Shown here in pieces: positions 1 through 1,515 of a stretch of DNA of 43,502 nt. The notes beneath the pieces were generated by a model. It searched no databases. It was given only the letters and a program-made list of their open reading frames with translations, and was not told where the DNA came from. The DNA lies in NCBI GenBank assembly GCA_039831155.1, contig JBDONT010000032.1:1-43502 (forward strand). The letters run 5' to 3'. Made by a program: the position numbers and the translations under genes. The DNA comes from Nautiliaceae bacterium (GTDB lineage: Bacteria > Campylobacterota > Campylobacteria > Campylobacterales > Nautiliaceae). The stretch's first letter is position 1, and each line of letters opens with the position of its first letter.

Positions 1-25
1 GGGACTATTAGAAATTCCGTGTCAG
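1..25 (+). repeat. IS256 left terminal inverted repeat
   Basis: Inner 13 nt (aattccgtgtcag) match the reverse complement of 1320-1332 exactly; the outer part is imperfect. Confidence 0.9.
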
Positions 26-58: not shown

Positions 59-1305
59 ATGGAAAGATTTGATTTTGAAAAAGCGGTAAAAGAGTTATTA
101 GCAGGTAAGAAGATAGGAGGTAAAGACGGAGTATTGGCTCCATTAGTTAAAGAACTTGTAGAAGCCGCATTTGAAGCGGAGATTGAAGCTCATATTGCAA
201 ATGAAGTATTACAAGGTAAAAAAAACAGAAGAAACGGTTACAACAGAAAAACGGTTAAATCCTCAAGCGGTGAATTTGAATTTGCTACCCCAAGAGACAG
301 GGAAGGAAATTTTGTCCTCACTTCGTTGCGGGGTTGTCGCTACGCTCGGACGAACCTCAAATAATAAAAAAACATCAAACAACAATCAGTGACGAAATAG
401 AAGAAAAGATTTTATCCATGTATGCTCTTGGAATGAGCTACAGGGATATTAAGTTCCATATAGAGGAGATATATCAAATATCCATTTCAACGGCTACAAT
501 CAATGCAATAACGGATAAAATAATATCCAAAGTAAAAGAGTGGCAAATTAGACCCTTAGAGAGTATATATCCGTTTGTTTTTATGGATGCTATTCATTAT
601 AAAATCAAAGACAACGGCAGATATATAAGTAAAGCGGTATATACGATACTAGGGGTAAATTTACAAGGGAAAAAAGAGATATTGGGATTATATCTTAGTG
701 AAAGCGAAGGAGCGAATTTCTGGTTACAGGTTTTAAGTGATTTAAGCAACAGAGGGGTAAAAGATATACTTATTGCAAGTGTTGACGGTCTTAAAGGTTT
801 TCCCGAAGCAATAAACTCAATATATCCAAATACTGAAGTTCAATTATGTGTAATTCATCAAATTAGAAACTCTTTAAAATACGTAGCTTCCAAAAATAAA
901 AAAGAGTTTATGAAAGATTTAAAAAAGGTATATCAGGCTATATCAAAAGACCAAGCAGAAATCGAACTTGACAGACTTGAGGAAAAATGGGGAGACAAAT
1001 ATCCAATAGTTATTAAATCATGGAGAAACAGGTGGGATAATTTATCCAATTACTTTAAATATCCCGAACCCATAAGAAAAGTAATATATACCACCAATAT
1101 CATAGAATTCGTTCATAGACAATTTAGAAAACTCACTAAAACCAAAGGTGCTTTTCCAAATGAAAACAGTTTACTTAAATTGCTTTATATGGGAATCCAA
1201 AATGCTGAAAAAAAATGGACTATGCCGATTAGAAACTGGAACCTTACACTCTCTCAACTGGCAATTTTCTTTGAAGGAAGATTGGATGAAGCTTTAAATC
1301 TATGA
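59..1305 (+). pseudogene. IS256-family transposase split by a 38-nt insertion (possibly recoded by -1 frameshifting)
   Basis: AAGGA RBS at 49-53. ORF 59-364 carries RNGY and PRDR-G-F; ORF 334-1305 carries FMDAI, VDGLKG, CVIH and TTNIIE (DDE). Removing 314-351 gives a continuous 402-aa PRDREGNF-EPQII... protein. Confidence 0.9.
314..351. repeat. 38-nt GC-rich double-hairpin micro-insertion
   Basis: gtcctcacttcgttgcggggttgtcgctacgctcggac; 24/38 GC; GTCC...GGAC ends; interrupts the conserved F-E-P junction of the transposase. Confidence 0.85.
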
Positions 1306-1311
1306 TATAAT
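1303..1311 (+). promoter_or_regulatory. Outward-facing extended -10 (TGaTATAAT) inside the IS256 right end
   Basis: Perfect TGnTATAAT overlapping the transposase stop codon. Confidence 0.45.
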
Positions 1312-1319
1312 TTTCTTAG

Positions 1320-1344
1320 CTGACACGGAATTATGAACGGTCTC
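1320..1344 (-). repeat. IS256 right terminal inverted repeat
   Basis: Reverse complement gagaccgttcataattccgtgtcag aligns with 1-25. Confidence 0.9.
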
Positions 1345-1515
1345 TGCTATTTTTCTAAGTTCCATTTTTTCTTCATAAAGTTTAAATATCATATTTTTTT
1401 GTTCTTCTGTTAATCTTTTGTATTTTCTATACTTTTTTCCTTTATTTAACCCCACTTTCAATTGGCACCCTTTTTTAATAAAACAAGCTATTTTCATCCC
1501 CATTTAGTCAGTGCC
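1345..1515 (-). mobile_element. Remnant of a second IS (IS1/IS6/IS1595-like end plus HTH-coding 5' part) interrupted by IS256
   Basis: Minus strand starts GGCACTGACTAAATG (GGnnnTG-type IS end). ORF 1503-1345 encodes ...RLTEEQKNMIFKLYEEKMELRKIA, an HTH cut at the IS256 boundary. Confidence 0.5.

Follow-up and report, generated by a model that had tools for sequence, protein, structure and literature searches.

A split transposase gene at the start of the window

The window, that is the whole stretch of 43,502 nucleotides analysed here (contig JBDONT010000032.1 of the Nautiliaceae bacterium assembly GCA_039831155.1), starts with an insertion sequence (IS) of the IS256 family, which occupies positions 1-1344 of the forward strand and carries a transposase gene divided over two open reading frames (ORFs). 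The family assignment is based on terminal inverted repeats, on overlaps with other contig ends and on the similarity of both ORFs to the Pfam domain Transposase_mut (PF00872): ORF1 matches positions 10-91 of the profile (E=2.5e-10) and ORF2 positions 89-377 of its 379 (E=5.8e-87). ORF1 (59-364, forward strand) encodes 101 amino acids, namely residues 1-85 of the transposase followed by a 16-residue out-of-frame tail that ends at the TAA of 362-364. ORF2 (334-1305, forward strand), listed from a TTG start within the insert described below, is in the -1 frame relative to ORF1, and its part with homology to the transposase (352-1305) comprises residues 86-402.

The two halves are separated by a GC-rich palindromic mini-element of 38 nt at 314-351 of the forward strand (equally 315-352, because a shared G leaves an ambiguity of 1 nt), which stands between TTT and GAA, the codons of F85 and E86. 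Insert-less relatives read GGAAATTTT directly followed by GA(A/G)CCTCAAATA across this junction; in insert-less copies of the same genus and family GGAAATTTT is followed by GARCCTCAAATA, or in the short form by GARCC. Compared with the intact relative L272, both residues 1-85 (89% identity) and residues 86-402 (93%) align without a gap. The length of the insert is 3n+2, and therefore the catalytic part of the gene is now in the -1 frame. The single long ORF typical of IS256, which the relatives have, is not found here, and judged from these alignments the two-ORF layout is secondary and was created by the insertion. All 83 columns that are invariant in an alignment of 65 family members are retained in the window transposase, including D164, D230 and E337 (relative's numbering), which we infer to be the Asp-Asp-Glu (DDE) triad.

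A preliminary description of this DNA had proposed that the split gene could be rescued by -1 slippage of the ribosome, and the frames are indeed arranged as it said. The codons GGA (305), AAT (308) and TTT (311) place the heptamer A_AAU_UUU (307-313, Asn-Phe) in the phase of ORF1, and the GC-rich insert follows it immediately. After a stop at 277-279 the -1 frame is translated as ICYPKRQGRKFCPHFVAGLSLRSDEPQII and continues into ORF2; the zero-frame translation, RDREGNFVLTSLRGCRYARTNLK with two stop symbols, ends at 362-364. Both frames are thus open over 82 nt (280-361), and any -1 shift in this overlap gives a full-length fusion. A_AAU_UUU is the sole canonical in-phase X_XXY_YYZ heptamer there; a slip at this position yields 85+330 = 415 amino acids, by arithmetic from the ORF coordinates, and an unslipped ribosome yields the 101 residues of ORF1. 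The insert reads open in all three forward frames, and an open -1 frame through it is to be expected because GC-rich sequence is poor in stops. Other statements of that description, that the inserted element breaks the frame and that the catalytic residues are intact, agree with the single-ORF relatives and with the invariant residues listed above.

The insert and its repeat family

The ends of the insert, GTCC and GGAC, form a 4-bp inverted repeat that encloses an inner hairpin, CGU-U-GCGG / UCGC-U-ACG (324-344, forward strand; -6.1 kcal/mol, z -1.56). All 17 of 17 copies of the subfamily retain the 4-bp inner stem GCGG/YCGC, one of them through a double compensatory change (GCAG/CTGC). The insert lacks the features of a miniature inverted-repeat transposable element: any target duplication is limited to 1 nt, and apart from the 4-bp repeat it has no terminal inverted repeats that match an IS, its ends being unlike the IS256 ends. 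A scan of window positions 200-480 against Rfam returned no family at E<=10.

The first half of the insert is a conserved core of 19 nt, GTCCTCACTTCGTTGCGGG (314-332, forward strand), of which exact copies occur in at least 74 loci from many phyla. The scan for this core took one genome per species and returned at least 120 stretches, at least 74 of the listed loci having the gapless 19-mer; gapped matches, mostly in one Streptomyces gene, were treated as chance. Among the matches listed, core-bearing loci are found in metagenome-assembled genomes (MAGs) of Acidimicrobiales (with many copies), Cloacimonadota, Treponema, Planctomycetota, Omnitrophota, Saccharibacteria, Bacteroidota, Gammaproteobacteria and Campylobacterota. 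The copy number reaches dozens in some MAGs of other phyla. In the window's own order the core (<=1 mismatch) is present in 18 of 301 genomes, at 23 places and one to three times per genome; a reversed control pattern was found in none of the 301. The two-unit form of 38-47 nt is much rarer, with only 12 further loci among approximately 185,000 species, all of them in vent Campylobacterota plus one MAG labelled 'Aquificales'. Viral contigs gave only 4 core matches.

The 5' flank of the mini-element is always a T-run, and the 3' flank usually begins with GA. In other phyla the core occupies the loop of longer, lineage-specific nested hairpins between unrelated housekeeping genes. A recurrent neighbour gene was not observed among 68 flanking ORFs from these phyla, which represent unrelated housekeeping genes only. 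Genes with a Y1_Tnp domain, as expected in a REPtron layout, were present in 4 of 5 genomes checked (7 loci), and the core flanks none of them; one of the 7 loci has two variant cores at a distance of about 1 kb. In the genome of the window such a domain (38 bits, IS200/RAYT-like) lies in a 264-amino-acid open frame at C22:42110-42439, with no core within 1.5 kb on either side. A full-text literature search with two 15-mers of the core found no paper that contains it.

An Rfam search of 16 related loci gave only a sub-threshold match to Flavo-1 (32.5 bits versus a cut-off of 42), at one Bacteroidota locus. At this locus, L025:1477-1547 (reverse strand) of a Chitinophagaceae MAG, the core forms the variable terminal loop of the Flavo-1-like hairpin. 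Flavo-1 is described as a motif of unknown function whose orientation with respect to transcripts can be either (PMC9723704). That publication also presents the GUCCY-hairpin motif, the layout of which differs from that of the element.

A longer nested-hairpin version of about 70-90 nt is found inside intact ORFs of three unrelated MAGs, encoding valyl-tRNA synthetase (ValRS; L027:1146-3017, reverse strand), TsaD (L057:1161-2333, reverse strand) and Obg (L061:396-1682, forward strand). These copies are always antisense to the core and in one constant frame, in which the core encodes ARNEVRT. When ValRS and TsaD were aligned to solved structures, 22-24 extra residues appeared precisely at the element; a fourth candidate for an in-frame copy is L103. 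The in-frame copies correspond to the pattern of 'selfish DNA in genes' known from the Rickettsia palindromic elements (RPE). From its sequence and distribution, the insert is assigned to a small family of palindromic repeats that resembles repetitive extragenic palindromic (REP) elements and the RPE. A mini-repeat of this kind has, according to the comparison with the relatives, disrupted a single-ORF IS256 transposase.

Repeat copies in IS256-type genes

Of the 23 places at which the scan of the order located the core, 8 fall within IS256-type transposase genes, and the same holds for 5 of the 12 subfamily loci. With a diverged copy in genome G238 the total is 10 inserts in 9 IS256-type genes, at no fewer than five positions and in both orientations, the remainder being intergenic. 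The genome of the window has three related copies (exact 10-mer scan), all in IS256-type genes, and 9,769 TTTGA sites. In the vent Campylobacterota the repeat occurs in IS256-type genes far above their share of the genome.

The F85/E86 boundary was struck in three lineages: in the window and G194 (38 nt), in G238 (44 nt, diverged) and in another IS type of G172 (38 nt). In the tree of the IS, insert-less copies (G050, G205, L272 and L273) branch between the lineage of the window and G194 and that of G238, and the insertions are therefore most simply explained as independent events at one of the approximately six TTTGA sites of the gene. The G238 insertion, which also has a length of 3n+2, stands behind A_AAU_UUU as well, and neither of the two ORFs is interrupted before its contig ends. 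G050 and G205, which have no insert, share the bases of the heptamer with the insert-bearing G194 and G238; the heptamer is missing from G109 and from the G172 IS type. By this comparison it represents the Gly-Asn-Phe coding sequence that preceded the insertion, and it is not special to the insert-bearing copies. Since the element lands after T-runs, it sits directly behind the codons GGA_AAU_UUU at F85/E86; the position of the heptamer is a by-product of T-run targeting beside codons that were already there.

A second IS256-type gene of the same genome (C22:24055-25250, locus L011 965-2140) is degenerate and contains two mini-elements and a 1-nt frameshift. The forward copy of 47 nt (C22:24286-24332) lies just upstream of the PRDR motif, and the reverse copy (C22:24560-24597) carries an in-frame TAG. 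The 3' tail of the forward copy, ...AUA_AAG_UAA, has an in-phase A_AAG directly ahead of the zero-frame stop, and the -1 frame runs into VNIPRDR. Another tiny insert, of 34 nt (TTCTGCTTGCAGTGAGTGAACG...ACGAA), was found in the IS of G194 (L266, G194:C40, at about window position 1200), and a relative of it adjoins the 38-nt element in an IS256-type gene of G093 (L137, about 1440-1480). These sequences suggest that such transposase genes also host tiny inserts of a second family.

Signs of continued function

In G194, a genome of another genus, an IS with 95% identity to that of the window has an insert at this site whose 38 nt are the same letter for letter. They include a 'TAC' loop variant that is absent from the others of the 24 distinct subfamily copies listed. 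The shared insert with its private variant makes a single insertion before the split of the two the parsimonious explanation. On the window branch since that split, outgroup-based polarisation (with one outgroup counted twice) gave 18 synonymous changes at 237 sites and 9 nonsynonymous changes at 969 sites, a ratio of nonsynonymous to synonymous substitution rates (dN/dS) of about 0.12. When all outgroups were required to agree, 6 synonymous and 5 nonsynonymous changes remained, with 33 sites ambiguous (binomial p=0.011 versus neutrality). Overall the post-insertion dN/dS of this branch is about 0.12-0.20. It shows no indel in 1.2 kb, and the sister branch shows three.

The genome contains several copies of the IS. 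The assembly, of 1.53 Mb in 43 contigs, contains the interior of the IS once, and IS-end overlaps of 126-127 nt, 100% identical, are found at five other contig ends. With the window included, the distinct flanks are four on the right (C33, C37, C13 and C1) and two on the left (C34 and C20), which amounts to at least four junctions. An intact transposase copy able to act in trans is absent from the assembly. DNA run X3 has a contig that matches 218-610 exactly, insert included, and is unbranched, at a depth of 8.5 versus 5.4 for the unique flank; this flank differs at two bases, and X3 therefore represents a related strain.

AlphaFold2 modelling of an intact relative (mean predicted local distance difference test score (pLDDT) 83, predicted template modelling score 0.67) places the F85/E86 boundary in a coil (residues 81-98) between the N-terminal beta-hairpin and the next helix. 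The pLDDT of the coil is low (61 and 59 in blocks of ten residues, and below 50 for residues 90-94). Because the boundary falls in this low-confidence coil, the model makes an insertion of 13 residues there sterically plausible. The substitution pattern, the freedom from indels, the 83 retained invariant residues and the several IS junctions suggest, indirectly, that the insert-bearing gene kept working.

Proposed explanation and its alternatives

The events can be arranged as follows. The imperfect palindrome of 38 nt entered between F85 and E86, and the insert-bearing IS would have stayed competent for transposition. Infrequent -1 slippage within 280-361, most simply at A_AAU_UUU, would produce the 415-residue transposase, whose flexible linker would contain 13 additional residues, CPHFVAGLSLRSD (junction ...EGNF-CPHFVAGLSLRSD-EPQ...). 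Most ribosomes would halt at 362-364 and release the 101-residue N-terminal protein, and the weak hairpin of the element would not be required for the slippage. That the IS remained active, with its full-length enzyme made by infrequent and essentially unstimulated slippage in the overlap, is the explanation we tentatively prefer, at somewhat short of an even chance. The resulting gene would by analogy be a secondary OrfA/OrfAB arrangement like that of IS3. A wider reading would hold that the cross-phylum mini-repeat has made the IS256 gene dependent on frameshifting at least twice behind the same ancestral A_AAU_UUU, that the IS kept transposing, and that recoding-throttled expression thus had a one-step origin as a parasite within a parasite; on the whole we regard this as unlikely.

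Several observations weigh against slippage as the source of an active enzyme. Since the heptamer is ancestral, nothing shows selection for slippage. The presence of the insert is visible for one copy only, as a single IS interior was assembled. Copies without the insert number more than 120, and the insert-bearing lineages form rare twigs among them: of 80 metagenome relatives fetched, 5 could not be evaluated and the other 75 all have no insert at F85/E86, and the same holds for 47 of 47 distinct rows, among 80, of the genome collection. The insert parts an invariant motif, in which 65 sequences agree without exception on D80, R81, F85, P87 and K92 and nearly so on E86. The sister IS of G194 is decayed, with two frameshifts in addition to the unrelated 34-nt insert, and the same-site insertion of G172 is preceded by the non-slippery ACG_TTT and accompanied by a further frameshift. 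The Logan RNA contigs that were identified belong to insert-less relatives and not to the window copy.

To these points must be added the surroundings of the heptamer. The rules given in one account of bacterial frameshifting (PMC4066793) place a stimulatory hairpin so that it starts 4-10 nt past the motif, opens with a G-C pair plus at least three further pairs and is markedly stable, and a Shine-Dalgarno (SD) sequence 6-17 nt ahead of the motif. According to the same source A_AAA_AAG/A type heptamers dominate in IS elements, and the tetramers prone to shifting in E. coli include U_UU.U. A_AA.U_UU.U is outside the 18 heptamers that were picked there for an efficiency above 0.10% without stimulators combined with under-representation (PMC4066793). 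Although an in-phase heptamer is present, the outer stem of the insert contains the motif, the hairpin of the core begins 2 nt past it, and the inner hairpin, with a spacer of 10 nt, is interrupted by a 1x1 internal loop after no more than three consecutive pairs. The preliminary description had given the spacer between heptamer and structure as short, about 2-6 nt; the conserved stems begin 0-2 nt or 10 nt past the motif. The stability of the hairpin, approximately 0.26 kcal/mol per nt, compares with 0.45 +/- 0.12 in the IS3 hairpins of that account (PMC4066793). The folds are no better than those of shuffled sequences, be it the insert alone (-9.8 kcal/mol, z -0.25), the region 300-375 (-14.9 kcal/mol, z -0.33) or a further fold (z -0.87). 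The only SD-like sequence is an AGGA at 304-307 that abuts the motif, and no GAGG, GGAG, GGNGG or AGGKG occurs in 278-306.

These figures speak against full programmed frameshifting, in which the inserted hairpin would be a dedicated stimulator that tunes the OrfA/OrfAB ratio as in IS3 and IS1. Such an arrangement would fit the succession of an in-phase heptamer and a conserved small hairpin, and the twofold origin of this architecture, in the window/G194 lineage by an insert of 38 nt and in G238 by one of 44 nt, both lengths being 3n+2. Spacer and stability are outside the empirical bacterial range of the rules cited (PMC4066793), whole-fold z-scores are only -0.25 to about -0.9, the G238 insert adopts a different fold, and the same element sequence is found intergenically and in genes where no frameshift is at stake. 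The motif itself occurs in the window, G194 and G238, which have inserts, and equally in G050 and G205, which have none. The suggestion of the preliminary description that the insert may supply its own, dedicated stimulator finds no support, and we regard programmed frameshifting in this full sense as highly improbable.

A more serious rival is that this transposase copy is dead, that the heptamer is there by a coincidence of T-run targeting, and that the signal of selection stems from the history before an independent or recent insertion, from gene conversion with intact copies or from mobilisation in trans by intact relatives. Most other insert-bearing IS256-type genes (G194, G172 and C22) are degraded, inserts in both orientations and at five or more positions look like random hits that persist in dispensable genes, and the missing stimulator and the insert-less state of all evaluable relatives at F85/E86 fit equally well. 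As the same site was independently struck at least twice more (G238 and G172), even a separate acquisition in the window and G194 would not be impossible. The private 'TAC' variant and the identical 38 nt in the sister IS, however, point to one old insertion, after which the window branch kept a dN/dS of 0.12-0.20, an indel-free 1.2 kb and 83 of 83 invariant residues, and the at least four IS junctions with identical ends, in an assembly that has no intact trans-acting copy, also speak against a dead gene. A dead copy remains a doubtful yet quite conceivable explanation.

Far less probable is the exact removal of the 38 nt, from the DNA by REP/IS200-like single-strand excision or from the mRNA, by which the transposase of 402 residues would be restored. 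The element is discrete, with GTCC/GGAC ends and a duplication of at most 1 nt, the nested insert-less copies (G050, G205, L272 and L273) could also have arisen by precise excision, and given the invariant F85-E86-P87 motif the native enzyme should be better than one with a 13-residue insertion. Yet the DNA contig of run X3 is unbranched over 218-610, the core flanks no Y1 transposase gene in the genomes checked, and no known ribozyme or RNA family matches. Joints from 314 to 355, with AG between them, were seen in RNA runs X1 and X2 from one sample. The contigs concerned have GAG instead of GAA, 11 other differences and a 17-nt gap, and therefore come from insert-less relatives and not from spliced or excised forms. 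Transcriptional slippage was likewise rejected, as the only A7 run (365-371) lies past the zero-frame stop.

Other traces of the IS in the genome

The left end of the IS coincides with the start of the contig. Its left terminal inverted repeat (1-25, forward strand) is identical at 19 of 25 positions to the reverse complement of its imperfect partner on the right (1320-1344, forward strand). The target duplication of the IS is unreadable because the left flank sits on other contigs: the left flanks C34 and C20 have no 8-9-mer in common with the four right flanks, and partner contigs are possibly missing. A solo piece of 45 nt from the left end (IS positions 2-46, the rest being absent) is present at C12:4990-5034, and its junction recurs in a contig of an RNA run. 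At C36:25579-26308 two head-to-head fragments represent remnants of older copies, one being the final 340 nt (98% identity) and the other, on the opposite strand, about the first 390 nt (83% identity, without the insert). Just outside the IS begins a lysine-rich ORF of 67 amino acids (window 1300-1503, reverse strand), helix-turn-helix-like by eye, which enters the right end of the IS.

Significance and comparison with known systems

If the insert-bearing IS is active, it illustrates a sudden origin of frameshift control, as in the IS3/IS1 type, for a transposase: the landing of a tiny repeat beside codons that are already slippery would then suffice, and no evolved stimulator would be required. 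The insert also reveals a repeat family that has one and the same 19-nt core from the Actinomycetota to the Spirochaetota and Campylobacterota, that occupies hairpin loops between housekeeping genes, and that is read through in frame in the essential ValRS, TsaD and Obg.

The element agrees with the IS256 family in that both halves of the gene match PF00872, terminal inverted repeats are present and the genome holds several copies; it differs in that the gene of the window is split by an insert. Short GC-rich inserts in AT-rich coding sequences, which break the frame of genes that still look functional, are known as translational bypassing elements, in phage T4 gene 60 and as the mitochondrial 'byps' of Magnusiomyces. 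The insert resembles these in all three respects. However, the 38 nt are preceded by TTT or GTC, and the codon before the GAA that follows is GAC, so that no take-off codon matches a landing codon, and bypassing was rejected as an explanation. The sole Phe-to-Phe hop, from UUU at 311 to UUC at 322, equals a -1 shift and leaves the insert in place.

With the OrfA/OrfAB genes of IS3 and IS1 the gene has in common an N-terminal part upstream, a catalytic part in the -1 frame, an in-phase X_XXY_YYZ heptamer and a fusion that would be the transposase. Unlike in those elements, the two ORFs arise here from a 38-nt insertion into an otherwise single-ORF family, and the window is without a properly spaced hairpin, pseudoknot or SD sequence. 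The heptamer is A_AAU_UUU and not of the A_AAA_AAG/A type that the published account (PMC4066793) describes as dominant in IS elements.

The insert itself is best compared with the REP sequences, the CGTC-tagged REPs and the RPE, small palindromic repeats that are also known from inside genes, as outlined in the account of Di Nocera et al. 2013 (PMC3733652). In several respects it departs from them. It has no GTAG tag, and its reverse strand begins with CGTC only when the ambiguous G at 352 is assigned to the element. Its stem is interrupted and does not fit the stem of that account, which has 8-9 bp and AT at the first two positions (PMC3733652). REP families are as a rule confined to one lineage, whereas very distant phyla have this 19-nt core in identical form, and this genome has just three copies, all in IS256-type genes. 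In common with these repeats the element is a tiny GC-rich imperfect palindrome, with copies of 38-47 nt where 20-50 nt, or dimers, are expected, dispersed, mostly intergenic and with some copies inside genes, and a dedicated transposase was not found beside it. On the sequence features compared, the class formed by REP, CGTC-tagged REP and RPE is the nearest described kind.

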